A stretch of DNA of 51,499 nt, filler included, from Jimgerdemannia flammicorona (GCA_003990765.1; 2 parts of 2 records of this genome joined end to end with filler, not necessarily neighbours in it); one strand, 5' to 3'. Positions 25,701 through 51,499 are shown, counted from the first letter of the whole stretch. Numbers and translations: made by a program. Notes: generated from the sequence alone by a model not told the origin.

Positions 25701-25800
25701 NNNNNNNNNNNNNNNNNNNNNNNNNNNNNNNNNNNNNNNNNNNNTTAATTAATTAANNNNNNNNNNNNNNNNNNNNNNNNNNNNNNNNNNNNNNNNNNNN
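25701..25800. other. Assembly gap with artificial six-frame-stop linker TTAATTAATTAA (25745-25756)
   Basis: An N-run with an embedded palindromic linker. Base composition changes abruptly across it. Confidence 0.95.
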
Positions 25801-25818: not shown

Positions 25819-26580
25819 TCAGCATTCTAAGGTCCCAGCATCTAGGTTAGACCTTTCCAAAACCCCACATTTGTCTCTTATTTTGTAGAAGAGAACCTCA
25901 TAGATTGGAGAGCCCTAGATCTCCTGGCTTTCCCTACTACCAAACAAGATGATGTCACCCATGATGACATTATTCTACTAATTGGTGATATATATGAAAT
26001 AGATGATATGTTTGCTGACCTCATCTCCTTTGAAGATATCCTGTCCCCAACCTCTAGCCTTGATGATAGTGATGAAGATGAAGCCCCCATGGTTCTGAAC
26101 TTTCTGCTCTAAGTTCTTTATAATACTTAAATCTTCTGGTATCCTTTTTCTATATCATGTGAATCTTCAGATATCCTTTTCCTATACTACTAAAATCTAC
26201 TAACATTCTGAACTTATGCAACCATTTGTACAGATACTCGAATTTGTACTTATAACTAAAGTTTTCTATATTTTAGTATTTTATTTAGTTATTAGAATTT
26301 ATATTGAGCTTTATATCTTAGCAATTATTGAATTATATTTTGTATCAATATCACTCTTATTTTCTTTGAAATAAAGTCAGTCAAGTTCACTTATACTTAA
26401 TTCTGTGCAAGCAATCTAAGAGATAATAAGACAGTTTAAAGATAAGAAGTTTGAGAACTATAAGACCTTGAGAAGGTACTCCAATAAGAACTTGCTTATA
26501 ATAAACTTGTGGTTAGTCTAAGAGATATATCTTGAAGAGAATCTGATATATTTAAAGGACTCAGTGACCACTATATAACA
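25819..26580 (+). repeat. 5' LTR of element A (truncated by contig start)
   Basis: Direct repeat of 35177-35953. It ends ...TAACA, followed by a PBS-like TTAGTGCTC (decayed TGGTGCTC). Confidence 0.8.
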
Positions 26581-28799
26581 ACTTAGTGCTCATTGACTGG
26601 TGATTCAAGATAAATTCCTCACTTTCAAACTGGAAAATGAATAACTACTACAATAATTACCCTGACTACAAAAGTCACCCCCTGCAAGAATTTAAGATAA
26701 GATGGAAATATATCTCTCTACATTCTATCAATATACTACTAAAGAGTCAATCCTGATCTTTATTGAAGACTTTGAACAATTTGCCACTATATAAGCCCTT
26801 GTTATGGATGTACAATTGATCCTTCTATCAGTCAGCCTCAGAGGACCTGCTAGAGATAAGTTCAATATAGTCACCATTACTGATGCTAGTGCAGCCAAAC
26901 TCACCAATATGAAGAATTTCCTCAGAACTATATTTTATACTAAAGAGATCAAGCAAGCTCTCAAAGATTAACTCAATACTCTCTGTCAGAGATTTAGTGA
27001 AGATCCCAACTCATTCTATATCTGAATCTACCATCAGATTATCTTAGCTAGCTATGATGACTGCCTCAAGAAACAAATAGCTGATTCAATCTTTCTCAAA
27101 GAAGTTCACCCTGAAATTGCCCTAGCAATCTGGTCTACCCCAGCTGCTCTGACTCTTGACCAGAAAGTGGTCTTTGCACAGAGATATTGGACTGCTAGAC
27201 ACCCTGCCAAATACTCAATGGAGAAAATAACTAGTATTAAGATAGAGCTACAAAAGTCAACTAGTATTATACCTACTACAGTTATCAACAGATAACCATT
27301 CCCACCTACCCCCAAGGCAGCCAAAGCTAATCCAGGGGAGAAACTCACCAAGTAGTTTGCTGAGATGACTGCATATCTTGGTGATGTTGTTAGAGAAGTC
27401 TGAAGTATCAACAGAAGACCAGTATAGAGATTTGTAGTTACTATAGAAAAACACAATATCACATACTTCAGATGTAGAGAAGAAGACCACTATGCAAAGA
27501 GTTGCATAACTGAAATAAGATATAAAGTCCAACTAAGCAATGCTACCAGAACCAGAGAACAAACCAATGTAGTAGTCATTGAGGAGATTGGTGATACTGA
27601 TGATGAAGAATACTATGAGAAGTCTGAATTATACCCTATTACTGAAGGTACCAGAACCTGGTCTAAGCTCTATGATAAGAAGGATAACAGTAAGTCAGTT
27701 GGAAGACCAAAGAATACCCCAGCTGTCACTATTCAAAACAAGATTCAACTTAAGGATATTGATCAAGTCATAGAGTTAGATGAAGCTGCCCACCAAATTA
27801 TTGAAGATACTACCCCAGTCTCGATAGAAAGTGAAAGCAAGAAAGAACAGAAGCTGTGCAAGACCAAGATCTATCAGTATGATATCTACAAGGATCTCAA
27901 GAAACAGAAGGTCAATGCTACTTTTAGACAGCTAGCTGAAGTTCCTGCCTTCAAACAGCAGTTAAGAGTAGGACTTACAACTACTATCAAGAACTAAGAG
28001 TATAAGATCATAGAAGCTCACAATGCACAAGAAGAATCTGAGAACTCAGATGAAGAATCTGAAGACTAGTGCAAAACATCTGCCTATTCCCCATGTCAGA
28101 TTGAAGATTATATATATCTTTGATACTATCATTGATACCAGTGTTGGAAGATACCTCATGAGCGAGAAGATAATTGACTGCCTAGGCTGGGACATTGAAG
28201 AGTCTACTAAAATGGTCGATATTACAGCAGATAGTATACAAGCTACCCCCTTAGGCAAAATCCAAAAAGTCTCATTCAAGATTAGAGGAGCTATTATCCC
28301 AGTAGATGTGATTGTTACAAGTATTACCAACTATGATATTCTCATTGACAACCAATGGCTTTACAAGGCCAAGGCTATCATTGACCTTAATGCCCAGAAG
28401 ATATAGATTAACTATAGAGAAAGAAAGGTATGAGTCTCTATCAATATCTATAAAGAAGTACCATCAGACATAAAGGAAGAAGATGAAGAGAACACAGAAG
28501 TCTTCATACACTCAGCATATAAGAACAAGAACAAGAACAAGACACTCAAGCTCACAGATGAGCAGTAGTACAATAAGATCATTGATGGCTATGCCTCTCA
28601 AGAAAGATGCCCCCATGATACTAGGATGTACTGCTCTGAATACCTGAATGACTACTGGTCCTGTATCAGTGAAGTTAGAAAAATCCATCTACAAATGTAT
28701 AAGCAAGAAGCTGCTGAAGTAAAAAAGAAAGCTGAAGAAGATGACCAGCCTCCAGAGCTTCAAGCTAATAGTGATGATGAGGAGGAATGAGAACTAGAC

Positions 28800-29147
28800 A
28801 TCACTCTCAAGGTCAAGTTTCATCCTGAAGCCAAGAACCCAGAATACAAGACTGAAGGAGCCATAGAAATAGACCTTGCCAGTATTTAGGATACTATCCT
28901 CAAACTACAGACCACTACTCTACTTGGTACTGAAATTGGAATCAGGTTGTCAGAGAACTATGCCAGAATTATCAAGACTAGGAGCAGTCTGGCTAAGAGT
29001 GAAATCTCAGTTGAAGGAAGAGTTATTAACCCTAATTATACTGGTGAGATCTTTCTCATAGTTAGGAATCACAACCCCACCACTCCATTCAAAGTCAAGA
29101 AGCATAACAGAATTGGCCAGATACTGATCCATAAAGTCAATCCATAA
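28800..29147 (+). pseudogene. dUTPase domain of element A, between protease and RT
   Basis: EGAIEIDL, KTRSSLAK, EGRVINPNYTGEI and HNRIGQILI are decayed dUTPase motifs 1-4. Confidence 0.85.
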
Positions 29148-30687
29148 AAAAAAAAAAAAAAAAACAAAAAAAAAAAAAAAAAAAAAAGATTCATAAAGTC
29201 TAGAAGCCTAAGATCACTGAAGACTTTGAACTCATCAAGACTAAGAGAAGAGAACAAGACTTTGGATCTACTAGAAGAGGAGTCTATGCTGTCACCAAGA
29301 TTACTAAACTTGAGCATAAGAAAAACAAGGACCAGAATAAGCATACATATACCATTGGAGAAAACTTTCCTCTAGAAGAACAACTTCTTAAGATCCTGCA
29401 CCAGAATGAAGAAGTACTTTCCACAGACTTCAGGGACATCTATAATCAAGAATCTAAGTATGTACTATCATAAAGTTGATACTGGTGATACCAAGCCTAT
29501 CTACCAGAAAGCCAGACCTATACCACCTGCCAACAGAGAATAGCTGTGAGCAGAACTTAAGGAAATGGAAGAAGCTAGAATCATCAAGTAAGCTATCAGC
29601 CTCTGGGCTTCAACCATTGTCCTCACCCCAAAGAAAGAAAGCAAGTCTGGAGAGTTTGCCTCAAGACTCTATATTGATTACAGAAAGCTCAATATAATCA
29701 CCAAGAAGGATAGACAGCTCTTGCCAAATATTCAACACTCTTAAAAGTGAAGCCAAATACTATACTACTTTGGATCTATTCTCAGGCTTCTATCAGATTG
29801 GTCTCACTCAAGACACTACTGAGAAATCAGTCTTCATCATACCTGATGTCACCTATTTCTACCTGCAAATGCTATTTGGAATGTACAATACTCTAGCAAG
29901 TTTTCAGCAAATGATGAACAGAGTCTTTAGCAATGAGATTGGAAAATAGCTCTTTGTCTATGTTGATGATGTGATCATCTTCAGCAATACTATATGAGAA
30001 TATATCAATCATATACAGCTAGCTCTCAAGAAGCTCAAGAAGCATGACCTCTACATCAAACTCAAGAAGTATAAGTTTATAGCTTAAGAAATCACTTACC
30101 TAGGACACATTATCAATCAGACTGAAATTCATATGGACTCTATGAAGATTGAGGCTGTTGCAGCCTATTCAAGACCAAGAACAATTACAGAAGTCCATGC
30201 CTTCCTTGGACTGATCTCCTACTATAGAAGATTTATCATAGGATACTCCAATATTATAGCACCTATCTACAAGCTACTGAAGAAGAAGACCAAATTTGAA
30301 TGAACCAAGAAATATCAAGAAACCTTCAATAAACTCAAGACCAGGTTAATCCAAGCACCCATCCTTAGAAGACCAGATTGGAACCTAGAGTTCATCTTGC
30401 AGAAGATACAAGTACTATAAAACCTGGAGCTATACTATCTCAGAAGAAAGATGGACATGAATATGTTATCTCCTATGCAAGCCAAGGTAGAACAGAACTA
30501 TGAGTCATGCAAGCTTAGATGCTTAGCAGTAGTCTGGATAGTGGATAAGTTTCACTACTATCTAGCTGAGAAATACTTCACTATTCAAACAGACCACTCT
30601 GTTCTTGCCTAACTATTCCACACTCTGAACTCCAAAGAAATATATACTAGATGGATCTACAGACTACAAGAGTATAACTATACTATC

Positions 30688-32749
30688 TGTAAGCGCACAA
30701 CCTCCAAGCCACCGAAATTATATGTCACCCTCTGAACAAGCCACTGAAATCACACACGACCTCCAAACAAATCTGGAAATCACCTGCTTGATCACAAAGC
30801 TGAGTCAAACCGAAGTCACAGCATACAAAGCTGAGTCAATATGAAGTCACGGAACACAAGATCTACACAAACGGAACCTTACCAATCAGGACCAAATGCA
30901 TATATACTGAGCACCGAGATGCGTCGAATCAGAGAACCAAAACAAACAACAACCACAACTTCCAAACACACAAACATGACCACTGAGATCTACAACCGCA
31001 TCTGCACTGACATTTGGAATGCCATTGTCAACTGAGCCACACCCCCTCTGCCTCTCATGAATATCCATAGCCTGGCACCCCTCTACTTCGTGGAAGCCCG
31101 ATGGAACGCCCTGAACATGCTTAGCGAGGCCCACCGAATCGGACAAATCTCAAGCTACTACCAGATCGGCTGCCTCCTGGAAGACATGGTTGAACACCAC
31201 CATGATACAGACATTACCCAGATGTCTCAACACCAGAAGCTCATTGCCCGCAAACATCGAGAACTCTTCTATGAATACAACACCTTTATCCCCCGCCTCC
31301 GAGTCACTACCAGCGAAATGGTTGCTACCCTGTCCTATGGCCAAATCGACGACATGATACAAGAAATCAACCACAAGTACCTTGAGTATGTCGAAACTAC
31401 AGACAGAACCTTCCCGCACCCTGATGACCACATTCTGCAAATGCCTCAAGTCGGATACGCCATGAAGGACGTCTACGATATAATCCACTTTGATGAAGAC
31501 GAAGCAGAAGACAATGACCCCTCTGACGCCGATATGACCTCTAGCCAAGAATCTCTGCCAACCCTGATCACTCTGCCAACCTTGCCGATGAACTTACAAC
31601 AGTTCATAACCACATACGAGACTTAATGGAACAATGACCACTGGCACGAATACCAACCCGCGTTCACCCCTGACTACTTCAACTACAATGAAGAGACCAG
31701 AGAACACAACCTGTACCTTCAGACAACTCTTGAGATTGAACCAACCACTCCACCACCCGAGTACGAGCAACTTGAATCACAGCCGCCAGCTTACTACAAC
31801 CCTGCAACTCATAGTGCTGTAACCTATAGAAGGTATGCAGACAGTGAATCTGATGAAAGCGAAGACAGTACACCCATCCTTCGCCCACCAACACCTTACC
31901 CAGCATATGAAACAGACGATGCTATCCTGTGGGACGGAGATGAAGTCCCAATGTATTACTACCTCAGCCAACAAGGAGAAGTAATCCACGAACCATTATT
32001 CCTAGACGACTACTTCATCAGAGATGATGCAATCGATGGTGATATCATCGAAGACTACCCAGATAGTGCCTAAACCTATAAATAGTCTAGCAGTCATAGT
32101 ATAGTTAGATTAGCCTTGTACGATGTGACTGTGAACTGACTCAGCAGTCAGACGATCTCTTGACATATCAGATCACACTTGTACTATGTGACTGCATTCT
32201 GACTCAGCAAGGCACTTAGTGCTACATCCATATTCAGCATAGTCCAGATAGCCCCTCACTAGTATAAATACCCCCTCCCCCAGACCTCAGAATCTCAGAC
32301 TCAAACACACAAGAACATTCCTGAATACTTCTCCACAATATCCCTTTACACAACTACTCCTAGTATAGCAATATCATGAATAGCGAATAAACCTATTTCA
32401 TAACCCACAAACCACTCTTAAGTAAATCCACTCCCTGTTAGGTCCTACTCCTAACCCTGTTACGATATCTCCTAATTGGGTATTGTCTGCAGCGATACGC
32501 CGATTCAACTAAGCTGGTCTTAGTTTCTTGAACTTCCTGAAATACGGAAAATTCTGAACATCCAGAACTAGTCTGAGAAAGGACTTTGGTTGAGATGTCA
32601 ACCCGATCTTGAAATCAATAAGCGTAGAGGACATACTCCATACGAAATTGATCTTGACCATAAGAAAACGGTCTTCCAGAACATCCAGAATATCCAGAAA
32701 ACTCTTCTAGAACTATGTAACGGTTACCCTAAAAAGTAACCCTCTTACA
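30688..32749 (+). mobile_element. 2062-bp solo LTR of a third family, inserted in the RNase H of element A
   Basis: Ends TGTAAG...CTTACA. 5-bp TSD CTATC at 30683-30687 and 32750-32754. Removing it restores EYNYTI|KYYLGRTNANADILSR. TATAAAT at 32263, AATAAA at 32386. Confidence 0.92.
30976..32073 (+). pseudogene. 365-codon accessory ORF inside the solo LTR (two in-frame stops)
   Basis: One frame from ATG 30976 to TAA 32071-32073. It is broken only by TGA 31033 (likely from CGA) and TAA 31624 (likely from CAA). Confidence 0.8.
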
Positions 32750-34387
32750 CTATCAAGTACTACTTAGGAAGAACCAATGCTAATGCTGATATACTCTCAA
32801 GAATATCCTGAAACACTCTCATCAAGACTATTCAACATAAATAAGAAGCTATACTATGGATTAATCAGCTATCTTGAGCAGTAGAAGATGTCCAACCACC
32901 TTAAACCATGGACTATCACTATTATCAATTGGACTTAGAAACAATTTGAACTAGACAATACTATACTCAGAAAAGGAGAAAAGCTCATAATATCCAAACA
33001 TAAGAAGTATCAAGTAATGAAGAAAGTATATGAACAAGGATACCTAGGAGGAACTAACATATATAAGAACTATATAGTGATCTAAGATAGAAGAAGACCT
33101 GTGCCAATTTATCAAAGAGTATGACAAGTGTCAAAAATAGAAATAAGATCAGTAAGACCAGGCACCTAGGTCATCAAGAATTGAGTCTATTCTCTTCCAC
33201 TATATCACAATAGATATCATTGGACTACTACCAGTAATACTATCATGAAAATACTACATTATAGTTATTATAGATATCTTTACTAAATAGATAGAAGTAG
33301 GAGCATTACAAGAAGTCAATGCTCTCTCTATAGCTGACTTCCTGCACCAAGAAATCATCTGCCACTATAAGACACCAAGGCAAATCACCACAGACCACAG
33401 TACAGAATTTGTCAATGAATTCTCTGAGATAATATATCAGAAATATAAGATTCAGCATATCAAGACCACCATGTACCACTCTTAAGGAAATAGATAGACA
33501 GAAAGAATTAATAAGACCTTTAAGAACATCCTGACAAAGATCTCAGACACATATGACAATTGGAATAACTACCTCCCAACTGCTCTCTCTGTCCTATGAG
33601 ATATATGATCACAGAGTACACACTTTACCCCAAGAGAACTGCTCTTCAGAGAAGAAAATTCTGATGGAACTTCAGCTACAAATCTAGACCTAACTTGGAG
33701 ATAGATGAACTCAGAAATCTGGAGACTATACTAAATTAAGAAGAAGGCTGAAGATTACATCATCAAGTTATAAGCACTGATAAAGAAGAATATAGAAAAG
33801 AATCACAAGACTCTAGAATTCATCCAAATTGGAGAAAAGCTTCTACTGTATCAAAATATAATAGAAGTCTCATAGTCATGAAAACTGGAGCCCAAATGGG
33901 AAGAACTCTTCTATGTGTGAGATATTAAGGAAACTCCCTTCTGGTTTAGAAAACTCTCAGAGACCATACTGCCTACTATAGTATATAGGAACAGACTCAA
34001 GAAATGCCATGAACCTATATAAGAAAAGTAAAACATAATGACTACCCACAAGGTTCTAGTCTGTGAATTGTAACAGTATGTCTTATAATCAGTGGGCAAT
34101 CTATCTGGACTATTATTTAAGAAATATGGTACTAACAACTACTCATCTGTGAGACTTTCAAAGTCAGAGGAGTTCAAACCATCAACTGATTGATCAAGAT
34201 CAGAATCAGGCCCTTGCTCTATATGAAGAGAGTAACCATTCACCATTATGCCAAAATACATAAAAAAGATACCAGCTCATAAATACCACTTTTCAATACT
34301 CTGCCAGAGATTATAGGATTATCAAATTTTTCAGACTAGACCAATAAATAAGAATGTTCAAAAGAAGATTCTTATTTAGAAGGAAGA

Positions 34388-35953
34388 TATAATAGTGACC
34401 TCAGAATGATAACATCATCACAGAAGACAGTCTTTCCTTACAAGCCACTAGATCAGAGTATAAGAAGATCATATAGCATAAATTACCTGGGCTACAAGAT
34501 GAGTAATGGTGACCAATCCTGAGTCATCATGATCACAAGACAGATATCTTGAGGAATATAAAAGAAGGACCAAGCAACTATAGTAGCAGTAACTCAAACA
34601 AGGCTCATAGAAATAGTTCAAAAGACTTACCACAAACAAAATACCTGCCACTCACCAAACCTCAAGATCTAGGAACTACCAAGGCTTCTAAGTCTAGAAA
34701 AGAATATTCTAAGATATCAGAAGAACTATGAGGATCTGTATAAGAAGAACTCCTAGTCTCAACCTAGGTACTGGTGACCCTTATCACTTTATTCTCTACT
34801 GCTGTAAAATGGAAACAAGGATCACTATTACTACCAAGTATCTCTGAATAGGGCAGGAATATAAAATAGAAAATCTCCTCTATTGGGAATTCCCTCAAAC
34901 TTATCCCCAAGAGATATATGTAAGATACTACTTCTATGGATATATATAAAATAAGAATAGCCAAGAAGATTCATCAGATCTTCAGATATATATAATGGTC
35001 AATCCCAAACTTAGAGTATACTAGAGTCTTGGACTTCTAGAAATTATCAGCCTATCATACTAATATATAAGAGGCCATGGTGGCCACAGAAGTCCAGTCC
35101 ACTATTACTCTCAATAGTAATGAACTGGAATCCCATCCTTTAGAACAATCTGGATCAATTTCTACAAGGATTGATCTCAGCATTCTAAGGGCCCAGTATC
35201 CAGGATAGACATCTCCAAAACCCCACATTTGTTTCTTATTTTATAGAAGAGAATCTCATAGATTGGAGGGCCCCAGATCTCCTTGCTTTCTCCACTACAA
35301 AATAAGATAACATTATCTGCAATAACATCATCAGTGATGACATCATTCTGCTAATTGGCAATATATGTGAAATGGATAAAATGTTTGCTGATCTCATCTC
35401 CTTCAAAGACATCCTGTCCCTGATCTCTAGCCTTGATGATAGTGATGAAGATGAAGCCCCCATAGTCCTGAACTTCCTACTCTAAGTTCTTTGTAATACT
35501 TAAATTTTCTGACATCTTTTTTCTATAACATCTGAATCTTTGAACACTCTTTTTCTGTACTACTGAAATCTACTGATACTCTGAACTTATACAACTATTT
35601 GTACAGGTACTCAAATTTATACTTACAACTAAAGTTTTCTGTATTTCAGTATTTTATTTAGTTATTAGAATTTATATTTAGCTTTATATCTTAGCAACTA
35701 TTGAATTATATTTTGTATAAATACTCCTCTTATTTCTTTTGAAATAAAGTCAGTCAAATTCACTTACACTCAATTCTATATAAGTAATCTAAGAGATAAC
35801 AAGACAGTTTAAAAATAAGAAGTTTGAGGACTATAAGACCTTAAGAAGATACTCCAATAAGAACTTGCTTATAACAAACTTGTGGTTAGTCTAAGAGATA
35901 TACCTTGAAGAGAATCTGATATATTTAAAGGACTCAGCAACTACTATGTGATA
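34388..35953 (+). repeat. 3' LTR of element A (~1.57 kb) containing a decayed accessory ORF (~34506-35485)
   Basis: Purine tract AGAAGGAAGA, then TATAATAGTG (decayed TGTAATAGTG), an imperfect inverted match to the LTR end CACTAT..ACA. The 5' boundary is inferred. Confidence 0.6.
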
Positions 35954-37148
35954 CTGTATAATTATAATTGAAGATTCTGGTCTACAGTATCTCAAAAACT
36001 TGCCCATATAGGGCTATCCACTCAGGAAGATAGTGTCATTCTTATGCAGGAGCCATGCTAATCTTCTCTATATTGTTCCAATTTTTTCAAGTACATATCA
36101 GTGGTCCCGAAGGACTTGACCTGGTCTATAGTATCTCTATCTTTCTTATTAGTCTAATAAGAAATACTGATAGCAGTAGTTTTGGAGAAAGTGGAAGATA
36201 TTTTGATACTAGTATCTTTCTAGCTAAAAGGTTCTTTCCTAATATATTTCTTATCTTAGTGTAATAGTAACTATACTTGGTTCTTTTTCAATATTTTAGA
36301 GGTCATTATTTTCTGATAGTATCTAGTATGTAGGAGTCATCTTAGAGAATAAGTTCAGAGAGTTTCTCCTATTTGGAAACTTTTTGTTCCAGAGTTTCTT
36401 TATTAGCTACTTCTTGATTTCAGATTGTTTGTACTTCTGTAGCTTCAGTTATAAGTATCTTTAGAGAATAGTTGTATATCTTTTTTTTTTATTCTCAGGA
36501 TAAGCTATACTAGATGGATTTCTTATTTCAATGATCTTAAAGAGCACTTATATCTTTTGAGATAGGTGGAGCATTCTCTGACATATCTTGCAATTGCTCC
36601 AATTATAATAAAGATAGTATCTTTGACCTATATATTATCTTCTGATCTATCATCTACTATATTGATTTATGGATTAAGTCTGGGATTATTTTCATCTTCA
36701 GATTCTTCTTAATTCTCTATAGTAGATACTTTGTTACTAATATCCTCTTCTTAAATAGTGACCTTCTTCTACTTCTTCAATAGCTTATAGCTGGTTACCT
36801 TGATCTATACTTAGTTTCTCTGTAGTCAAATTTGAATACCTATTGACCAATATCAATAACTGCATTCATTTTCTTCATCTAGTTAATATTAAGAATTATA
36901 TCATATATGATAGCTTTAGTAATAATAGCTTTTAGAATAGAGAAATAAATATGTCTAAGAGAGATAGTAATATTTTATACTTATCCAAGGGGTTGAGTTT
37001 AGGCTTCATTTACTACTATAATACTGAGATTAGATAGTCTATTAATAGATTACTAAATAGTGTTTAGAAATTATTTAGTAATAATACAGATAACTACTCT
37101 TATGTCAATAAGAATTTTTACCTTCTATTCTCTAATATCTCTATATAG
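35954..37148 (-). mobile_element. Older, heavily mutated fragment of the element B family (protease and downstream spacer)
   Basis: 36150-37148 aligns by eye with 42830-43870 (e.g. ccaaggggttgagtt; ttgaccaatatcaataactgcattcatttt). Confidence 0.8.
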
Positions 37149-38385
37149 TGTAACGTGCCTGGCTCAATGGAGGCAAATTACAAGGTTGGGGGTTGATGTA
37201 GTTTGGTTTGAGCCTCCAGTTACTTTGTCAAAAAGCAACAAAATGTTCTAAGATTCCTGAGATCCTTGGTGTTTAGTGGTATAATAGTCAAGATCTGGAT
37301 ACTGTGCGAGTGGTTTCCTTATTGGGACGGTTCTTCTGGGTGTAGTGGCGATTTGTGTGTGTGAACGGGTTTCCTTCTTGGGTCAACTGGGAATGCCACA
37401 ATTTGTGTAGCGCGACGGGGTTCCTTATTCGGGTCAACTAGGAATGCCACAATTTTGTGTAGCAAGGCAATCTCCAAAAGTATGCGATTTCTGGCATGAC
37501 GATCTCTTGTGTAGCACGATGGTTTCCAAAAGTATGCGATTTCTGGCATGACGATCTCTTGTGTAGCACGATGGTTTCCAAAAGTATGCGATTTCTGGCG
37601 GATAACTCGATTTGGCTCACTGGGAATAAACGAATAACTCGGATGGCGCGGATTCAGCTTCAACTGGGAATACTACTCGGATGATGCGGATAACTCGGAT
37701 AACTCGGATAACTCAGATGTCACGGATTCTTCCTGAATTGGCAGCTCTTCTGGGAATACGATGGCGCGGATTCTTCCTGAATCGGCGGCTTCAACTGGGA
37801 ATGCGGATAACTTGAAAATGGCGGACTTCTTAGAATCGGCGGCGAAGTTCTTCCTTGAACTTGGCGGCAAACTTCAGGCTTATCTGGCAAGCGAACCAAA
37901 AATGAACTTGTTCTTTGTATCGGAAAGTGGACCGGAGTAGAAAAAGGGAACCAATGCTCACAATCTCCTAGTAGTGACTGTAGAGTGGGCATTTCTCCTA
38001 AGTGTTGCAATCCTTCCTGGATCAAGTGGCTTTTGGCAGGCATATCCCTTGAAGTGTAGTAGGCAGACTTGTCTTTTGCTTTGGATTCAATTTTTGGACT
38101 GAGGTTTATTCACTCTTGTCTCTGGGGTAATTTATACATTGTGGTTGCTATCCAGTTGCTATCTGGCTAACTATAGATCTGCTATTTATGGTGTGTTTGG
38201 GTGGACAGTCACTGTCTGGTGGACAGCCACTGTCCAGGGGACAGCCACTGTTCACATTATTCCCTTCTTTGGCTATCTGGTTATTTATACATTTTTCCAC
38301 AGCAATGGTTGCTGGTTATTATACTATGTTAATGTTTATGTCACCTGGTTAGTTTTGAGATTACTATGTTTCATGGTTTGTCACA
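37149..38385 (-). repeat. 3' LTR of element B (1237 bp) with internal 52-bp and 9-bp tandem repeats
   Basis: Ends TGTAAC...GTCACA. 37149-37900 matches 45934-46624. A 52-bp unit starts at 37474, 37526 and 37578; (GGATAACTC)n at ~37688-37715. Adjacent PPT-like AGTGGGGGCTGA on the minus strand. Confidence 0.85.
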
Positions 38386-38424
38386 TCAGCCCCCACTGAA
38401 GAATAGTCTGTCCCAGACTATTCT

Positions 38425-38931
38425 TCAGTCATCATCCCAATAAGCATAAGCTGCTTCTGCATCTATACCCATCCTGTCATCTTCATTGTCTATATCAGGG
38501 TCACTCCATTTTAGCTCTGGATCTTCTTCTTGTCCTTCAGGAAACAGGATGTCTACTTGTTGGAGAATACTCTGGAAGGTGGTCTTGTTCATTTGATGAA
38601 TATCATTGAGATAGAAGTGAGATTGCACCAGGGCTCTGACATTTCATTTGTACAGAGTGTAGATTCATTTGGCAGTTCTTGCTTCTCAGCAGATTGTCCC
38701 AGCTGGTCCTTCAATGTATAGCTGTTCTTCAAGTAATTGTCTGATGTTGTAGAAGACCTGTAGATGGTGGTTCTGTAACAATCTTTGGGTGATGGCAAGG
38801 TTCTCTTGATGTTTCTGGATCAATTGTATTGGGGTTCCTTCAAGTTGGTGGAACTGGGGTAAGGGAACTGGTAGGGCCTGAAAGAAGCTGAGGACCAATG
38901 TCTGGAGGTGCTGATCAATTCTTTGACTCAT
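38425..38931 (-). pseudogene. 168-aa accessory ORF of element B, between integrase and PPT
   Basis: One frame MSQRIDQH...VFYNIRQLLEE...TAK*IYTLYK...WDDD* with three TGA stops (likely from CGA). Its ATG overlaps the pol stop. Confidence 0.75.
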
Positions 38932-41814
38932 GGTATAGAGGGGAGATATAGTTTGAGGCAATTGATTTGTACTGGTGTTCTCAGGATTCATCCATCCATG
39001 TTTCTTAAATAGATGCTAATTCCTCTGATATTGTGTATAAGACAAGGTTCCTCTCATTTGGGTTCCAACTTGGCAGCAAAGTTTGTCTCAATCATGCTTC
39101 TCCAGACTAGGACTTGATCACTAACCTTGATCATCTGGTCCTTCTGCTTCTGGTCATAATACTTCTTTTGTCTTTCCAGAGCTTTGATAATCTGATTTCA
39201 GGCTTCATTTCTCAGCTAATCTCCCTTTTTGAGGAGTTTTTCGAGATTCCCATGGTCAGCAGTTCTGGTCTTCTTGGCAAACATCATTTCAAATGGGTTT
39301 TGTTTGGTTGAGGCTGCAGGGGTGTTTCAGATTTCCCATAGGATCTCAGGTAAGCAGAGGTCCCAATTAGTAGGATTGACTCAGGCAAGTCCTTTCTTGA
39401 TGGTCTGGTTCATTCTTTCTGTCATGCCATTGGTCTGAGGGTAGTATGAAGTAATCCTTTTGAGGCGGATCTTGTGAATTCAGGCATAACTTGTGATTAT
39501 GTTGTTGATGAATTCCATGTCTTGGTCAGAGATAAGTTCTTCTGGGGTCCATATCTGAGTGTGAGTCCATAGAGGAGACCTACAATGGTTAAGGCATCTG
39601 CAGTTTCCATTGGGAAAGCCTCAGGCCACTTGGTCAGATGTTCCACAAATACAAGGATATATTTGTTTCTTCTTGATATAACTGGTAGAGGTCCAATTAT
39701 ATCTACTCCCCATCTCTAAAAGATGTGAGTGGGTGGGGGAATTGGTTGCAAAGGGGCTTGATAGTTCTTCTTTTCTTAGTACTTCTGACAAGTATCATAT
39801 TTCTGGATGATATCTCAGACTTGAGTTCTGAGGTGAGGCCAGTGTTGATACAGTTTCCAAATCTTGTCTTCTATACTTGTCTGTCCTTGGTGGGCTTTCT
39901 GATATTCTTTATGGATAAGATCTTCTTGTGTTTTGATGGTCTAAGGAGCTTCCTTTAGAGTGTAGTTCCTTGGGACACCCTTCTTCTGGTTCATTGGGAC
40001 TGGCAGGAAAGTATATCAACATTGTTGTGGGCTTTCTCTGCTTTGTGGATGATGGTGATTTTGTAATCCTGAAGGATAAGGATCCATCAGGCTAGGATTC
40101 TGGTGGGTTTCTTGTAGTTGAATAACCATTTGAGGGCTGTATGGTCTGTGATCAGGGTGAACCTTTTTCTGATGAGGTAATGCTTGAACAGAGTGACTGC
40201 CCATATAACTGCAAGATATTCCAGTTTGGTGCTACCATAGTTCATCTGCTGCTGATTGGTAGCCCTGCTTGCATAAGCTATTACATAGTGCTGTTGATTG
40301 GGTCCTTCTTGGACTAGAACTGCTCCTAAGCCATCTTTGGAAGCATCTATATACAGGAGGAATGGCTTCTGTAGATTGGGGCATACAAGGATTGGTGCTG
40401 TGGTCATATGGTTCTTGAGTTTTCTGAAGATTATTTTTTGTGATTCTGTCCATTTGAATGGTACTCCTTTCTTGAGAAGGATCTGGATTGGGGCAGTGAT
40501 TTGTGCAAAGTTCTTGATAAACCTTCTGTAGTAGGATACTAGTATCAGGAATGATAGTGTTTCTATTAGGGTCTTTGGTACTGGCCAATTGTTGATCTTC
40601 TCAGTTTTCTTTGGGTCTGCATGGGTTCCTTCTTTTGAGACTATGAATCTAAGGAATTCAAGTTTCTGTTTCCAAAAGTAGCATTTCTTTGCATTCAGTC
40701 TCATGTGATTTTTGTAGGTGAGCTTGAAGAATTCCTCCAGGTAGTGCAGGTGTTCTTTGAAATTTGCTGAATAGATATTGGAATCATCTATGTATACAAT
40801 TAGGCAGTAGTGGATCAGGGGGGTATAGACTGAATTCATCATCCTCTGAAAAGTGGGGGGTGCATTGCAAAGTCCAAAGGGCATTCAGAGGTATTCAAAC
40901 AGTTTTTCTAGAGCAAGGAAGGCTGTCTTCTGAATGTCCTTGGAGTCCATGGTGATCTCATAGAATTCTGTGAAGAGGTCCATACTACTGAAGTATCTGA
41001 TATCTTATAACTGGTCCAAAAGGTCATTGATTCTGGATAAAGGATAGGCATCCTTTTTGGTAACTGAATTGAGTTTCCTGTAATCTACACAGAGTCTCCA
41101 TCCTCCTTTCTTTGGTACAATAAGTATAGGGCTGGCCCAGGGGCTGATAGAGGGTCGGATGACCCCATTGTCTAAGAGTTCTTGAATGTGCTCCTTTTCA
41201 AATGTTTTCAAGTGATGGGGTATTCTATAGGATTTCTGCTGGATAGATATTACATTTTCTGTATTTATGCTGTGGTGATATGATGGATTGTATGACAGGT
41301 TGCCATAATCAGTAGTAAAGATATCTTGATATTTGTTGAGAAGTTCTACTAGTTGTTGCTGTTGTTGAGATGTTAATTCTTCTCCAATATTGGTGGAAGG
41401 CTTCACTGTCTCCTGGGTCACAGAGAGGCCTTTTCTTTCTTCTGGGACCTTTTGCCATTTCCTGATAGGTTTAGTTCATAAACTTCCCTATGAGTTTGGT
41501 TGAGAAAAGGCACCAGATGTCCTATGATGGTTCCTTTTGGCAAGATGATAGTCTCCCAACTTTGGTTGGTCACTCAGGAGTGTACCAGATTCATCTTGTC
41601 AGAGAATGTGTGTCTCTCTATGTCCAGATGGGAGATATCTTCCTTGGGCTTGAAGAAAAGGTTTCTGGGGTCGGGTGGTGCAAAGATTTCGAAGGTAGTT
41701 TGTTCCCCAGGCTCCAGGATCAGATTCTTGTGCAGTCTGACTGATTGCTGGTATACTTACTGGGGAATATTCCTTTTGAGATAGTTGACTTGAAGGAGAT
41801 GTACTTCCTTTTTA

Positions 41815-42215: not shown

Positions 42216-45200
42216 TGGGCAATATCTTTGCTGAGTTCAGGCTGTCCTAGAGCTGAGGCTCCACTAGTAGAGAGCCTCCAGGCTCTGAGATTGAGGTGTG
42301 GCCATCTGGCTCCAGTAGAGGGATCTTGGAGATAATTGATTCCCCTTCTTCCTATAGGGTCTAGGGCTTCCATGACATTGGTGGCATCTTCTGCCCATCC
42401 TTGGTAGGTTGTATGTCTGATGAGAGCTAGGATGTCTTCTCCCAAATCATAGATCTTGAGGACTCTTCTTCCTGGCTTCCTGGTTTGGCTTTTTCAGATC
42501 TGGCTTCTGTTGTCTCCTCTCTTTAAAGTATGGACTGTGACATCATAACTGAGGTGAATCTTCTGATGTCTGCAGTCTTGGCAGTCAGGGTGTCTCCCAT
42601 GGTTGCAATATCTCATTGCTCAGAAATGGTGTTCCCGGCTGTTGATTTCTTGTTGCCTTGGGAATTGGTACCCATCTTGATCATAAGTTGGGAGAAGGGT
42701 AGACAAGGGGTATATTTCTATTCAGGTGAAGAAGCCTTCTTCTCTAAATCAACTTTATAATCTTGTGGTAACTTCTTGAAAAGTGTTTGACCATACAAGT
42801 GTAGTTTGGGGTTCTGGTCTCTGGGGTCTCTGTCTTTCTTATTGATCCAACAGATGACACTGATAGCAGTAGTCTCGGGGAGAGTGGAAGACCATTTGGT
42901 GTAGACATCTTCCTAGCCAGAAGGCTTTCTCTTGGTGAGTTTCTTTCTTGTGGATAATGGTGATTGTACTGGATCCTTCTTCTATATTTCAAGGATCATT
43001 GTCTTCAGATAGTGTCTAGCAAGGATCATCTCAGGGAATGAGTTTGGGGACCTCTTCTTCTTCAGGTACTTCTTGTTCAGGAACTTCTTGATCAGAAGTT
43101 TCTTTTTCCTCAGATGATTCTTGATCCCAAATTGCTTGTACTTCTGCTGCTTCAATTACAGGTGTTTCTGGAACATGTCTGCATTTCTTCTTCTTTCTTC
43201 TGCATTCTGGGGAGGCTGTGCCAGGCGATTTCCTTGTTCCCATGATCTTGGAGGAGTGCTCAGGACACTTATGTCTCTTGAGGCAGGTAGGGCATCCTTA
43301 TGCTTCTCCTGCAATGGCTCCAATGGTGATGGGGATGGTATTTTTAGCCCATACATTGTCTTCTGGTCTGTCATCCACCAGATTGATTTGGGGATTGAGT
43401 CTGGGATCATTTCCATCTTCAGATTCTTTTTTCTCTTCTGTAGTAGACTCCTTGCTGCTGGCATATTCTTCCTGTATAGTGACCTTTTTCTTCTTCATTG
43501 ATTGCTCATAGCTGGTTACCTTAACTCCATACTTCTTGCCTTAGTAGTCAAACTTGAGTACCTGTTGGCCAATATCAACAACTGCATTCATTTCCTTCAT
43601 CCAGTTGGTACCAAGAATTATGTCATAGGTAACAGCTTCAGTGAAAACAGCTTTGGGGATGGAGAACTGAATGTGTCCAAGGGAGATAGTGATATTTCGT
43701 ACTTCTCCAAGGGGTTGAGTTCAAGCTCCATCTGCTACTATGATGCTGAGGTTGGATGGTCCATCAATGGGCCATTGGAGGGTGTCCAGGAATCGTTTGG
43801 CAATGACACAGACAGCTGCTCCTGTATCTATGAGGATCTTCACCTTTTGTCCTTCAATATCTCCATATAGGTAGATGCTGACATGTCTTTCAGCTACTTG
43901 GACAGGGATGGAAGCTGGTTCTTGCTGTGGGATTGGAACTTGGCCAGTGCTAGACCTGGTGGTTCTCAGTAATTTATTTCAGACTCCAGCTGGTGTCAGT
44001 TGCAAGAACTGCAGGAGAGGGACTTCCATCTTAGCTTCTTGAATCTTCTGCCAGGCTTTGTTGTAAATGTCTCTAGGCATAGTCTGCAGAGTATACTTCT
44101 TCTTAGGCTTTGGAGCAGCAGGTTCCCATTCTTCTTATTCCATTTCTTCATCTTCTGGTAGCAACTCGTTTGTCTCAGAAACAAAAGGTAAGGGGGTTTG
44201 GAGAGGTGTTTCTACTTATTCCTCCTCATGTTCTTCATCTTCTTCTTGGATGATTCTTCTGCTGATGTTCCTGGATGGCCTTCCTATAGGTCTCTTCCTC
44301 TTTTCTGCTGGGTAGACTGTCTTTTGGGTGGTAACCTTGGTAGGGTACAAGTCTAGGTCACTGTAGTCTTCACTATTGCTTGCTTCCTTGAAATCTTCAA
44401 TAGGATGGACTTCAGTCTTCTTGTACTGGGTGTCATTCCTTTGGTTTGGTGGTTCTGAGTCTCTTCAGTCACTTCTTTTGTTGTTATATTCAGTGGCATA
44501 GTGTTCAAATTATCTACAGTGGAAGCATTGGACTTGAGCTCTATCTCAGACAGGGTACCTTCTTTCTTCTTGCCCATAATTCCTATTATCTCTTGGTGAA
44601 TAGCCTTGGCTCCTCTGTAGTGGGTATCCTCTGTTGTCTTGGTAGCCCCAATTTTTATATATAGTGAGTTTTTCAATCTGTCCAACCAATCAGTCCAACT
44701 TGGAGCTGAGGTCTTAGATTTCACTTCTGTCCTTCTTTTCTTCCTTGGCTGGCCTTCTTTCTTTAGATCTTTCTGGCTCTTGAAGGAGTCCTTATAGGGG
44801 ACCAGGATGTCTTCTTTTTCTTCTTTCCTATTATGATCACTCCAGGTAGTTCCTTATATGATATCAAAGAATCCTTGGGCTGCATCTACTTATTCTTCAG
44901 ACCTTCTGATACCCAGGGTGCAGACATTCTGGGCAATGTTTGGAGGAATTCCATTCATAAAGGTCATTGGACCTATAATGTCCTGATTAGTGGCATTGAA
45001 CCCAGCAGCATGCATTCTTTTCTGGATTCTTGTGAAGAAGGCTCTGGGTGATTCTCCAAGATTCATTTTCATCCCCATTATGGATTCTTGGGCCTTGTGG
45101 TGGGTTTCATTTCCTGCTTACTTTTTGATGAGCCAATGGACCATGGCCTCATATTCTAGCTCATAAGACATTGCTACTTGTATTTGTCTCACCAGTTCTG

Positions 45201-45933: not shown

Positions 45934-46624
45934 TGTAACATGCCTGGTTCAATGGAGGCAAATTACAAGATTGGGAGTTGATGTAGTTTGGTTTGAGCCC
46001 CCAGTTACTTTGTCAAAAAGCAACAAAATGTTCTAAGATTCCTGAGATCCTTGGTGTTTAGTGGTATAATAGTCAAGATCTGGATACTGTGTGAGTGGTT
46101 TCCTTATTGGGACAGTTCTTCTGGGTGTAGTGGTAATTTGTGTATGTGAACGGGTTTCCTTCTTGAGTCAACTGGGAATGCCACAATTTGACGGGGTTCC
46201 TTATTCGGGTCAACTAGGAATGCCACAATTTTGTGTAGCGAGGCAATCTCCAAAAGTATGCGATTTCTGGCATGACAATCTCTTGTATAGCGCGACAGTT
46301 TCCAAAAGTATGCGATTTCTGGCAGATAACTCAATTTGGCTCACTGGAAATAAACAAATAACTCGGATGGTGCAGATTCAGCTTCAACTGGGAATACTAC
46401 TCGGATGACGCGGATAACTCGGATAACTCAGATAACTCGGATGTCGCGGATTCTTCCTGAATCAGCAGCTCTTCTGGGAATACGATTGTGTGGATTCTTC
46501 CTGAATCGGGGGCTTCAACTGGGAATGTGGATAACTTGAAAACAGCGGACTTCTTAGAATTGGCGGCGAAGTTCTTCCTTGAACTTGGTAGCAAACTTCA
46601 GGCTTATCTGGCAAGCGAACCAAA
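45934..46624 (-). repeat. 5' LTR of element B, lacking the U3-side ~485 bp (probably cut by the LINE)
   Basis: Matches 37149-37900 up to gcaagcgaaccaaa, then diverges. Confidence 0.85.
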
Positions 46625-49600
46625 TACAACTCATGTTACACAAACTTCAAGAAACCGTTTTTCAACACAACTTGGAGGAAAGGTACTATAACAATGTCAT
46701 TGAGCAAGAGTTCTGCCAGGTGTGCTAGGTCAGGTGGACCTGGGGCTTTTGGCTGGCAGCATGTGGGGAGGGGGTATGGCCTGGGGATGGGGGCCTTTGG
46801 AGGGTTGAAGGGTGGTGGGGGCTCTGGAGGTAGACTGGTGTCTGGTAGCCATGGGGAGAGGCCTGGTACCCAAAGTTTTGTGGATAAGGTGAAGGGGAGT
46901 GGGTGGCTAGCTGGGACTAGGGCTGGTGCTGTGGTAGGGAAGGGCAAGGCAAGCCTCAAGAGGGGGGGAGCTACTCAGGGGGGGAATGCGAGCATAAGTG
47001 CTGGAGGTGCAGTGGCTGGGGATGGGACTGCTGATGGCAGTGTGACAGGCAATCAGGAAAAAAAAAGAGATGTGACAGCTGATGGCAGTGTGGGGCAGGG
47101 GTTCTCAATGCGGAAGGGTGACCTGGCTGATAGTGTGACAGGGCTGGCAGTGGCACTATTACTCAGGAAGTCAATTTCAGAGTTTGCAGTGATACTGTGC
47201 TTTTGAGGCTTGGTGGTAACAGTGAGGATGGTCTTGGGGCTTGTCTCAAAGCAGGTGACTGGGGCTGCCTCAGTGAGGTTCCTGAATGGCTTGGAGGGAG
47301 TTGAGGTGGGCTTTGAGGAGGCAGGCCCACTAGAGGAGATACTGAAGTCTGGAGTGGTGGTTGGCGAGGTAGTAGTCCCCATGATGCACTGCCTGAGGTG
47401 GGATCCCAGGGTGGTGCAGCTGCTGGTGAAGGGGGTGTCTATGATGATGAAGGAGGAGACCAGGAGGAGAGTGGAGGAGGTGATGGTAGGGTATGGTGAT
47501 GTAGTGGATATCAGTTTTCAGATGTGAGAAGGGACCTCTATTAGGACTAGTGATGTGGAGGTGAGGATTAGACTGGCAGAGAGGGAGGCCACAGGGAAGA
47601 TGAGTGACTGGCCCTCAGTATTGATGTGGGGGGCCTTTATCTATAAGGTATCAAGGGTGTGAGGGAATGAAGAGGAGGAAGAGGACTTGCTGGAGGCACT
47701 GGAAGAGTTGAGTGGTGCTGTTGAGAGGAGGGCGAGGGCCTGAAAGGTGTATGAGGAGTCGATGCATCTGGAGATTGTTGATGGGAAGAGGATTCAAATG
47801 GACAAGGGGCAGTGGGAGTGTGCCCAGGGGTGCAAGCGGCAGAGAGAGCTGTTGGCGAGTATGAGCAGTGGGGCTATAAAGAAGGCTGATGGGGCTGAGG
47901 TGTCTAGGGGTGCCAAAGCCAGTGTCTGGGCCAATAAAGGAGAAGAGAAGATAGAGGTGAGCAAGGAAGGAGATAGGAAGGTGCTGAGCAAGAGCCCCTA
48001 TACTGATGGCACATTTAAGGTCTGGGAGCAGGAATTGGATACCACCCCCCCCCCTCTTATCAGGAGGGGCCCAGCTTGGAAGAGAGGAATGACAGAGGAT
48101 GTACTGATGCAGGGGGCCCAGCGAGTGCACTTTGGGGTCCCTGATGTAGCGAAAGGGGGCCAGGTGGTGGCAGTTAGTGAGGATGAGCTAGTGGATGTCC
48201 CTGAGGAGGAATGGGATGAGGCTGTCAGTATCAGAGCTGACACCATGATGTTGGATGCAGGGTGGCCAGGGACTCCAGGAGGGAAGGAGGTGGGGAATTT
48301 GTTGTGGATGAGCAAGGTGATGGATAATATTGTGGCAGAGGTGTTGGGGGAAGTGGACCTGTGGGTAATGCCCAAGGAGCACTAGGAGCAAATCCTGTAT
48401 AGTGATGGAGTGATGGAGGCACTGAAGGTGGAGATTCTTATGATCTTCCTAGAGGAGGAGGGATATGAGGTTGATGAGGTGAGGAAGGCAGAGCTGGTGG
48501 TGGTCACTAGTAAGTGGGTGGCCTACTGTTGGGCAGAGCAGTTCTGGCAGGAGGCCTGTCTGGAGTATTGTGAGGACTTTGAGGAGCAAGAAGATGGGGT
48601 GATGGTAGAACTTCTGGGTGGGTTGGAGGTACAGGAAGCTGGAGAAAGGGAGCTAGTGACTGAATATGACTTGGACTTAGTGCAGGAGGAGCCAAATGCG
48701 GACTTGTAGAGGATGGGACCACATTATATCATTATTCCTTATGAACAGTATAACCAACATTTTCTCTTTGAATGTGAATGGGTTAAGGGGTTCTGGGTGG
48801 TATAAGAACATTTTTACCTGGCTCAAGGGATTGGAGGCTGATCTCTTTTTACTATAGAATATTAGGTATGAGGATGAGGACAATTGGGTAGAGTGGACTA
48901 GGGAATAGGGTGGGGCTACTGCTTGGTTTGAAAAAGTGGCAATTCTGATGAGGAAGGGTAGAGGAGACTTGGGGGGAATCAGGAGCTGGGATGATCACTT
49001 GGTCTGAGGTAATAGATATTGGCCAGGGTGAGAGTCAGTGAAGGTTGGCTCTTGCTACTGCCCTGCAGTTAGAGGTGAGAGAACTGCATGGATTAGGGAG
49101 TTGCTGGAGGAGGGTATTCTCTTGGAGGAAGGAGTTGATGTTCTCAGTGGGGACTTTAACATGGTTCAGGATCAACATCTGGACAGAACTGATGGAGGGA
49201 GGAGTGCAGAGGGGAGAAGTGGAGGTCTGGATGCATAGGAGAAGGTGAAGAAGTTGAGCTCCTTTGGGGTATATGGGCAGAACACGGTGGGGTGACACCA
49301 GGGTCTACATACATTGGGTGAATGGATTGGGTACAAGAATTGACTGGATTCTGATGGCAGAGTGCTGGGGTCCTGATGTTTGGAAGATATTGGAGGTGGA
49401 GTAGTACCCATGGTCTGATCACTGGGGACTGTTGGGGCAGGGGCAGTTTGGAGGGAGTGGAGATAGACCTGGACATTGGCACCTTAACTCCTCCCTGCTG
49501 GCTGAGAAGGGGTTGTGGAACTCATGGGTGGAGGACATTCAGGTGAAGGTTTCTATCTGGAGGCATGAGGGTTTGTCTGTGGGTGTCTATTGGATGAGAT

Positions 49601-51188: not shown

Positions 51189-51499
51189 TAGTGCTCCGAA
51201 CGAGTCAATCCGGATGGGATTCGGATGGATTCGAATTGGATTCGAATCCCATCCGGATGGATTCGAATCGGATTCGAATCGGATTCGAATCGGATTCGAA
51301 TCAACCATTGTTTTGATTTCCAAATTAGACAATTAAATGTTTACATCAATAACTTGATGAATAATCATCCATATTTGATGATCTTGGTGTCATTTGAAAG
51401 CCCTTAATAAGGCCTTTCTAATGATACCAAGAACATTAAAATCGGATTACGTGTTGCCGAGATATTAAGGAAAACGTTCCATTTGACGAAATTTCCAAA
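51189..51499. mobile_element. Terminus of a young DNA transposon/MITE-like insertion interrupting the LINE
   Basis: Abrupt switch to CpG-rich sequence starting TAGTGCTCCGAAC. Subterminal (GGATTCGAATC)-type palindromic repeats at 51209-51303 and a 25-bp-arm hairpin at 51382-51432. The other end is outside the window. Confidence 0.6.

Follow-up and report, generated by a model that had tools for sequence, protein, structure and literature searches.

A probable family of accessory genes downstream of pol in divergent fungal Ty3/Gypsy retrotransposons

The fungus Jimgerdemannia flammicorona (GCA_003990765.1) harbors decayed Ty3/Gypsy retrotransposons, several of which are nested within the 51,499-nucleotide stretch of DNA analysed here (the window), which consists of two parts of the genome joined end to end with filler. 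Three open reading frames (ORFs) in this nest, belonging to an element A, an element B, and a solo long terminal repeat (LTR) of a third element S, are decayed copies of real ORFs that have intact relatives elsewhere. All three are probably worn copies of one unnamed accessory-gene family, positioned 3' of pol in at least three divergent fungal Ty3/Gypsy lineages. A family of this kind was proposed in an initial annotation of the window, and the findings below bear out its central claim while redrawing several of its details.

The S ORF occupies 30976-32073 on the plus strand and comprises 366 codons, with a stop codon at 32071-32073 and two internal stops (TGA at 31033-31035, TAA at 31624-31626). 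Same-composition shuffles of this region carry 15.7±3.7 internal stops, and none of 5000 has two or fewer. The ORF lies wholly in the U3 region of a 2062-bp solo LTR (30688-32749, plus strand): its ATG at 30976 is 288 nt inside the LTR, and TATA-like sites (32077, 32263) and an AATAAA (32386) lie downstream. The initial annotation had given the ORF coordinates as those of the solo LTR; they are correct for the ORF and too narrow for the LTR. The LTR has the ends TGTAAG...CTTACA with a short inverted repeat, is flanked by a 5-bp target duplication (CTATC at 30683-30687 and 32750-32754), contains no gag-pol coding sequence, and has no internal direct repeats beyond one 40-nt pair. It sits in the linker between the RNase H and integrase of element A, whose pol frame (...EYNYTI on one side, KYYLGRTNANAD... 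on the other) resumes across the insertion. The solo LTR is the remnant of a third, otherwise absent element. A phmmer search with the S protein against 1.84 billion representatives returned three proteins, P0001, P0002, and P0003. P0002 is 93% identical to S over residues 1-128, and P0001 is 67% identical over residues 115-364, keeping the frame for 247 residues with in-frame gaps only and the same end point. P0003 was dropped: six repeats drive up its score (E 1.9e-4), and this repeat protein has no passing stretches in its Pfam rows. A scan of viral contigs with the S alignment found no relative.

The A ORF (34704-35485, plus strand, about 250 codons) is the most decayed, with eight internal stops, a stop codon at 35483-35485, and a reading frame distributed over the segments 34704-34916, 34924-35154, and 35126-35482. 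Because intact relatives map to these three frame segments, the window copy must be broken by two frameshifts; the ORF was initially placed at about 34700-35060 with one frameshift, so that its location was right, and its extent (34704-35482) and the number of frameshifts were underestimated. Its relatives were found by searching with a joint alignment of two A frame pieces from the window together with B and S members; out of 911 candidates, 20 proteins had E<=10, with P0020, P0021, and P0022 among them. These three proteins (215-271 amino acids) share 79-80% mutual identity with in-frame gaps only. In tblastn comparisons P0020 and P0021 match the window at 49-66% identity across the A segments in collinear order, and P0020 extends upstream to 34641.

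The B ORF (ORF3) follows integrase on the minus strand at 38425-38931 and runs for 169 codons from Met to stop, exactly as initially described. It is internal to its element, ending 525 nt before the 3' LTR. All three of its internal stops are TGA, at positions where relatives carry Arg. Searching with B ORF3 gave 18 candidates, five of which are relatives with 51-81% identity, and the database relatives total 16 (P0004-P0019). In addition, the metagenome contig L001 is 78.7% identical to element B over 4030 nt, and there the ORF3 frame follows an intact integrase. Between L001 and the window copy, the ratio of nonsynonymous to synonymous substitution rates (dN/dS) over 67 post-integrase codons is 0.11 in the ORF3 frame and 0.73 and 1.95 in the other two frames, and it is 0.13 for both RT-RNase H (RT, reverse transcriptase) and integrase. 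ORF3 of B is under purifying selection as strong as that on pol, and the ratio near 1 that the initial annotation named as speaking against the family is not what family B has. The dN/dS estimates cover family B; selection in A and S was judged from kept frames only.

The likeness of the three proteins emerges at the level of families rather than of the window copies, which had been said to align by eye. When only the window copies are compared, the tblastn matches of S in the A and B regions have E-values of 67 and 18, respectively, many chance matches score better, and frameshift-aware alignment scores to S are reached by 22/200 (A) and 11/200 (B) shuffles. Intact relatives change this picture. 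BLASTP of P0004 (family B) against P0002 (family S) gives E=0.001, with 19 of 67 residues identical and the match starting near residue 5 of each protein. For each family, a profile hidden Markov model (HMM) was run on a set of nine family members and 882 decoys, the latter being six-frame segments of the window. The A-HMM ranks P0004 (E 0.057) and P0002 (0.95) first among non-self sequences, ahead of the decoys; the B-HMM ranks P0002 first (0.037), followed by one decoy (0.29) and then P0021 and P0022; and the S-HMM ranks P0011, P0005, and P0004 (0.05-0.09), then P0009 and P0021, before any decoy. Out of 5000 shuffles, the B-HMM scores are reached by 6 for S and by 3, 1435, and 5 for A; the A-HMM scores by 31 for S and by 2, 523, 53, 555, and 350 for B; and the S-HMM scores by 29 and 896 for A and by 3, 0, 60, 45, and 5 for B. 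Smith-Waterman scores compared with 3000 shuffles are reached 8 times for S-A (208 with P0020), 1, 68, 3, and 1 times for S-B, and 534, 95, 3, and 1726 times for A-B.

The families were further compared in a family-level test in which alignment columns were permuted, with the same permutation applied to all members of a family, and the mean cross-family Smith-Waterman score served as the statistic; permuting columns jointly per family allows members to be pooled without cherry-picking. The observed scores exceed the permuted ones for S-A (40.0 versus 27.7±3.4, reached by 7/1500), S-B (50.8 versus 28.8±2.9, 0/1500), and A-B (38.0 versus 28.2±2.1, 2/1500), and their sum, 128.8, was never reached (84.8±5.0, maximum 108.3, 0/1500). 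Permuting blocks of 8 or 12 columns, which keeps local motifs and helix periodicity, also never reached the sum (0/1000 each; z 6.8 and 5.7), and reversing any one family lowers the scores to 23.7-28. In the joint alignment of ten sequences the Y, I, G, and L of the motif Y-x-I-G-x-x-L are invariant (10/10), and one Pro and one Gln are nearly so; in S the motif stands at residues 62-68 of an N-terminal helical domain of about 135 residues (30976-31380, plus strand). Of the pattern initially proposed, this motif and the A-[KR]-[KR]...[FY] block hold in all three families, while IP-x-L and [KT]LS are confined to S and A. Taken together, these comparisons indicate that the N-terminal domains of S, A, and B, about 125-135 residues long, are very probably homologous.

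Several results weigh against homology. Every single pairwise statistic is weak. Comparisons of HMM scores with shuffles are uneven from member to member, as the counts of 1435 and 896 of 5000 both concern P0020 (with the B-HMM and S-HMM, respectively) and those of 523, 555, and 350 concern P0005, P0009, and P0011 with the A-HMM; likewise, the A-B Smith-Waterman counts of 534 and 1726 of 3000 belong to two of the four B members. The check by hhalign that had been suggested gives P=0.013-0.057 with a 'probability' of only 1-3% on shallow profiles (Neff 1.2-1.6). B in the window went undetected by the S-family HMM (E=12), and at E<=0.001 the phmmer search with S against the 1.84 billion representatives reported no relatives of A or B. 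The acidic tails are no more alike than their composition explains, since the best of 17 pairs is reached by 35/3000 shuffles and most by more than 200/3000; the by-eye tail motifs W-x-x-PD and RDD-x-I-x-G-D, too, do not go beyond composition and were rejected. AlphaFold2 models are of low confidence, with a mean predicted local distance difference test score (pLDDT) of 52.6 for B and 31.1 for S. In addition, a full-length S element is absent from the window, and the start of the A LTR is hidden by an artificial spacer.

Most of these points would fit an alternative in which the three ORFs are unrelated and lineage-specific, and their likeness reflects chance or the convergence of helical, Q/L-rich heads joined to acidic tails: the hhalign probabilities, the uneven scores, the compositional tails, the non-significance of the window copies alone, and the failure of phmmer to reach A or B from S all favor it. 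Chance or convergence of this sort does not readily account for family-level scores never reached under column or block permutation (0/1500, 0/1000, 0/1000) and falling to the null level on reversal, for cross-family members that top the 882 decoys in all three directions, or for three pairwise alignments that agree on columns, begin near residue 5, and share a motif present in ten of ten sequences. Independent origins are accordingly improbable, and a single family remains the preferred reading.

A second alternative concerns the boundary between pol and the accessory gene. In the window copy of B the start codon of ORF3 overlaps the integrase stop as ATGA (38928-38931, minus strand). If the region were a C-terminal extension of Pol, it would be an extra Pol domain joined to integrase by frameshifting or read-through. 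The ORF3 frame is indeed open upstream of the integrase stop, for 156 nt in L001 and 84 nt in the window; the called relatives P0004, P0006, and P0012 start upstream; and L001 has ATAA at the junction and hence no ATG. Over the 156 nt upstream of the stop, however, the comparison of L001 with the window copy gives dN/dS 0.16 in the integrase frame and 1.38 in the ORF3 frame, so ORF3 coding begins at the junction. Of 14 family-B N-termini, 12 have Met at the junction (the exceptions are P0006 and L001), no slippery heptamer was seen by eye before the stop in either DNA copy, the A ORF begins about 60-125 nt past the apparent end of pol, and the S ORF starts 288 nt inside the LTR. A Pol extension is thus less probable still than three unrelated ORFs, and a separate accessory gene is favored.

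The ATGA overlap suggests that B ORF3 is made by termination-reinitiation. Three points tell against this mode of expression: 9 of the 12 junction Met residues belong to called proteins, which are Met-initial by construction; only two DNA copies are readable, with ATGA in one and ATAA in L001; and folding of the 61-96 nt upstream of the junction yields z-scores of -1.21, 0.09, -0.76, and -0.16, among which no RNA structure stands out. Stop-start overlaps are described in fungal viruses, as AUGA in victoriviruses and UAAUG in the hypovirus CHV1, in the available parts of PMC3597494, PMC13013214, and PMC2699510. The arrangement in B resembles these in its fungal host and in the AUGA formed by the downstream start codon with the upstream stop; it differs in that the overlap is seen in one of two DNA copies, no structure was detected upstream of it, and the upstream ORF is a long gag-pol.

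A third alternative is that each region is a captured piece of a host gene, acquired by transduction and without a role for the element. The available part of PMC5408684 describes the acquisition of foreign ORFs by LTR retrotransposons in other organisms. Against capture stand the lack of a cellular relative (the phmmer search with S returned two copies of the same ORF and one repeat protein), the lack of a Pfam family, selection on B ORF3 equal to that on pol between two element copies, and the presence of the family in three divergent lineages, all of which make capture very unlikely. Least credible of all is that the frames are spurious, non-coding 3' or LTR sequence left open by chance in T-poor DNA: with T at 20% and G at 18%, the S region is rich in A and C and so expected to have fewer stops, but none of the 5000 composition-matched shuffles has so few, the frame is maintained among relatives with identities of 51-81% (B), 67% (S), and 79-80% (A), and a dN/dS of 0.11 in the proposed frame only already refutes this explanation for B.

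The elements that carry the accessory genes are divergent. Element A pol (28014-34090, plus strand), split by the solo LTR, has the order protease, dUTPase (28890-29147), RT (29458-30612), and integrase (core about 33204-33465). Element B RT, RNase H, and integrase (38940-41475, minus strand), recognised from ORFs and Pfam integrase matches, lie upstream of ORF3 and correspond to the intact pol of L001. A and B are 26-37% identical in pol (tblastn), the final match stopping at B 38952 and A 34001; their similarity is restricted to pol, and their LTRs are without mutual similarity. The claim that three different Ty3/Gypsy lineages are involved therefore stands for A and B, while S is known from its solo LTR only. 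A dUTPase (PF00692) lies between protease and RT both in element A (E 4.2e-12) and in L001 (positions 3-851, E 1.6e-15). According to the available part of PMC5408684, this order is reported only from basidiomycete retrotransposons, and dUTPase-bearing basidiomycete elements are also described in what is available of PMC2864245 (Novikova et al. 2010). Judged by the sequence alone, this order and the protein clusters nearest to A (below) would make a basidiomycete the probable host, rather than the Mucoromycota or Glomeromycota named initially. A chromodomain-like stretch after the A integrase (about 34380-34580, plus strand; …HHHRR…W…NPES…LEEYKRR), noted by eye, is upstream of and outside the A ORF and was not confirmed, as none of the frames in the 3' regions of A and B matches Pfam Chromo.

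Coding sequence extends into U3 wholly in S, partly in A, and not at all in B. In element A the final 100 or so codons of the ORF fall within the 3' LTR (35177-35947, plus strand), with the ORF terminating 305 nt past the LTR start and TATA-like sites following at 35716 and 35777; the C-terminal coding part recurs in the 5' LTR (25819-26574, plus strand) at 25819-26109. The two A LTRs are 86% identical. Because the start of the 5' copy is cut by a spacer (25701-25800), the LTR may begin further upstream, and the LTR-borne share of the A ORF is not visible. The spacer itself consists of TTAATTAATTAA between two 44-N runs (T18 at left, A18 at right) and resembles an artificial six-frame-stop spacer, which would make the window two joined pieces with host genes to the left and the retroelement nest to the right. 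In element B the 3' LTR (37149-37900, minus strand; ends TGGTTCGC...GTTACA) and its partner 5' LTR (45934-46624) are 86.8% identical across 752 nt. The gene belongs to the 3' end of the elements, as the initial placement in an env/nef position had it, and its exact position differs among the three.

The accessory proteins have a predicted helical head and an acidic tail. For the first 130 or so residues the AlphaFold2 models contain helices and no other structure, the first two helices spanning residues 2-18 and starting from 34 in B, and spanning 3-18 and starting from 34 in S. S and A have a long tail, and that of B measures about 40 residues; the tails contain aromatic residues and have D/E to K/R counts of 52:7 (S), 28:6 (A), and 18:0 (B), in agreement with the acidic tail originally noted in all three. 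No transmembrane-like segment is present in eight proteins from the three families, where the largest 19-residue Kyte-Doolittle mean is 0.57-1.36, and no Pfam env family matches at E<=1; the proteins lack the signal peptide and membrane anchor that define retroviral and errantiviral envelope proteins, and the earlier statement that they are not env is upheld, no segment exceeding 1.36. A search of the whole of Pfam-A (E<=1) with the window copies and seven intact relatives recovered no family, retroviral ones included, beyond sub-threshold chance matches (E 0.07-0.36). Sequence and profile matches in PDB to dynein regulatory complex 4 (E 0.044) and ATP synthase b (E 0.03-0.3) were rejected as generic long-helix bias, and no DNA-binding family was recognised in the Pfam and PDB searches of the accessory proteins. 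A soluble helical protein without a named family, as initially described, is what these searches find. The protein Atlas contains only unnamed clusters (scores 0.86-0.93, low shared-feature counts); those nearest to A are Basidiomycota hypothetical proteins (score 0.86), a lead only, and gene callers list the accessory ORFs as 'hypothetical protein'. The source contigs of P0002 and P0004-P0022 are 506-2297 nt long, mostly barely longer than the ORF, except for two proteins on an 11765-nt contig. Any of the short contigs that are assembled transcripts would count as evidence that the ORFs are expressed; a search of sequencing runs listed no RNA run and gave seven DNA or unknown runs with small shares (0.05-0.15).

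Retroviruses provide the closest analogies of arrangement. 'Complex' retroviruses are distinguished by genes additional to gag and pol, and retroviral 3' accessory genes that overlap U3 include nef of the human and simian immunodeficiency viruses (HIV/SIV), sag of mouse mammary tumor virus (MMTV), and tas/bel of foamy viruses. The fungal genes are similar in that a small non-envelope ORF follows pol and codes into (A) or lies within (S) U3, upstream of a TATA-like site; B does not overlap the LTR. Foamy-virus Tas has an acidic activation domain, and its combination of a folded head and an acidic tail would be shared with the fungal proteins. The likeness to activators with acidic activation domains in general is limited to the acidic tail with its aromatic residues. 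Differences from nef, sag, and tas are the lack of a Pfam match to retroviral families, the fungal host, the absence of env from the elements, and the wholly internal position of the B gene. By arrangement, the accessory family resembles the 3' genes of complex retroviruses, and it belongs to none of their families as modelled in Pfam.

Accessory ORFs beside gag-pol also occur in other retroelements. Plant Ty3/Gypsy elements carry extra ORFs. In bdelloid rotifers the ORF3s of LTR retrotransposons have an enzymatic origin, as the available part of PMC5408684 describes. Such extra ORFs resemble the present ones in being common to divergent retroelement lineages; the rotifer ORF3s differ in their enzymatic origin, no enzymatic or other known domain being detectable in the present family. 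Among fungi, an 'add. ORF' of unknown function is drawn in some Gypsy elements in Figure 3 of Novikova et al. (2010; PMC2864245), which likewise shows fungal Ty3/Gypsy elements with an additional ORF. The available portion of that paper gives no sequence, family, or discussion of it, and one text supplement has no mention of it. A literature search for a described family yielded only this figure legend, and further supplements of the paper may list such ORFs.

On the preferred reading of one family, the accessory gene would already have been present in the common ancestor of these lineages, with about 16-22% identity now left in its protein and about 26-37% in pol. Expression in family B may proceed on the gag-pol RNA, through termination-reinitiation at the ATGA overlap, and in S and A the protein would need a subgenomic, spliced, or read-in transcript. 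The folded helical head, the aromatic-rich acidic tail, and selection together with the element prompt the guesses that can be made about function. The leading guess, from architecture only, is a regulatory or adaptor protein that serves the element. More specifically, the protein could tentatively be an activator that drives transcription from the LTR of its own element. Two further candidates, each a shade more doubtful, are an adaptor binding a host factor, as a decoy or against silencing, and a cofactor of the particle or of integration; the rest of the field belongs to something else. The transactivator or anti-silencing factor initially suggested would fall among these guesses. It is similarly speculative, though possible, that fungal Ty3/Gypsy elements carry an ancient nef/tas-like regulatory gene in or next to U3, in one lineage expressed by stop-start reinitiation, that activates the LTR or disarms silencing.

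The remaining features of the window concern the age of the insertions and neighboring sequence. Across the host part (1-25000) CpG occurs at an observed/expected ratio of 1.09. The ratio drops to 0.00-0.02 for element A, 0.17 for element B, and 0.15 for the right flank, and stands at 0.64 for the solo LTR. CpG has been almost completely lost from elements A and B, and the higher ratio of the solo LTR relative to the surrounding element A identifies it as the younger, and the youngest, insertion. A direct repeat of 71% identity (36121-37148 versus 42814-43870) places a B-related internal, gag-side fragment next to the outer end of the B 3' LTR. Further right, 46627-51498 (plus strand) contains a decayed reverse transcriptase at about 50340-51050 (RVT_1, E 4.6e-25), is strongly G-skewed, has no LTR pair in view, and is probably another, non-LTR retroelement. 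In the host part, a 1177-codon open frame with IQ calmodulin-binding motifs (10312-13845, plus strand; E 4e-63) includes a 231-bp tandem repeat at 11361-12333, and an open frame with a Ribosomal_S2 domain (2932-3993, minus strand; E 2.4e-60) is a host gene.

Extra genes of fungal LTR retrotransposons have been drawn in a figure and not studied. The present ORFs point to an unnamed family kept across lineages whose pol is only about a third identical, with selection in family B as strong as that on pol. For annotation there is a practical gain, as an ORF inside a 2-kb solo LTR can pass for a host gene. The family may also offer a concrete way into the self-regulation of fungal retrotransposons or their response to silencing by the host; CpG decay of the window copies is extreme. 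Should the genes prove to be nef/tas-like regulators, retrovirus-style accessory regulation would not be limited to the retroviruses of animals.

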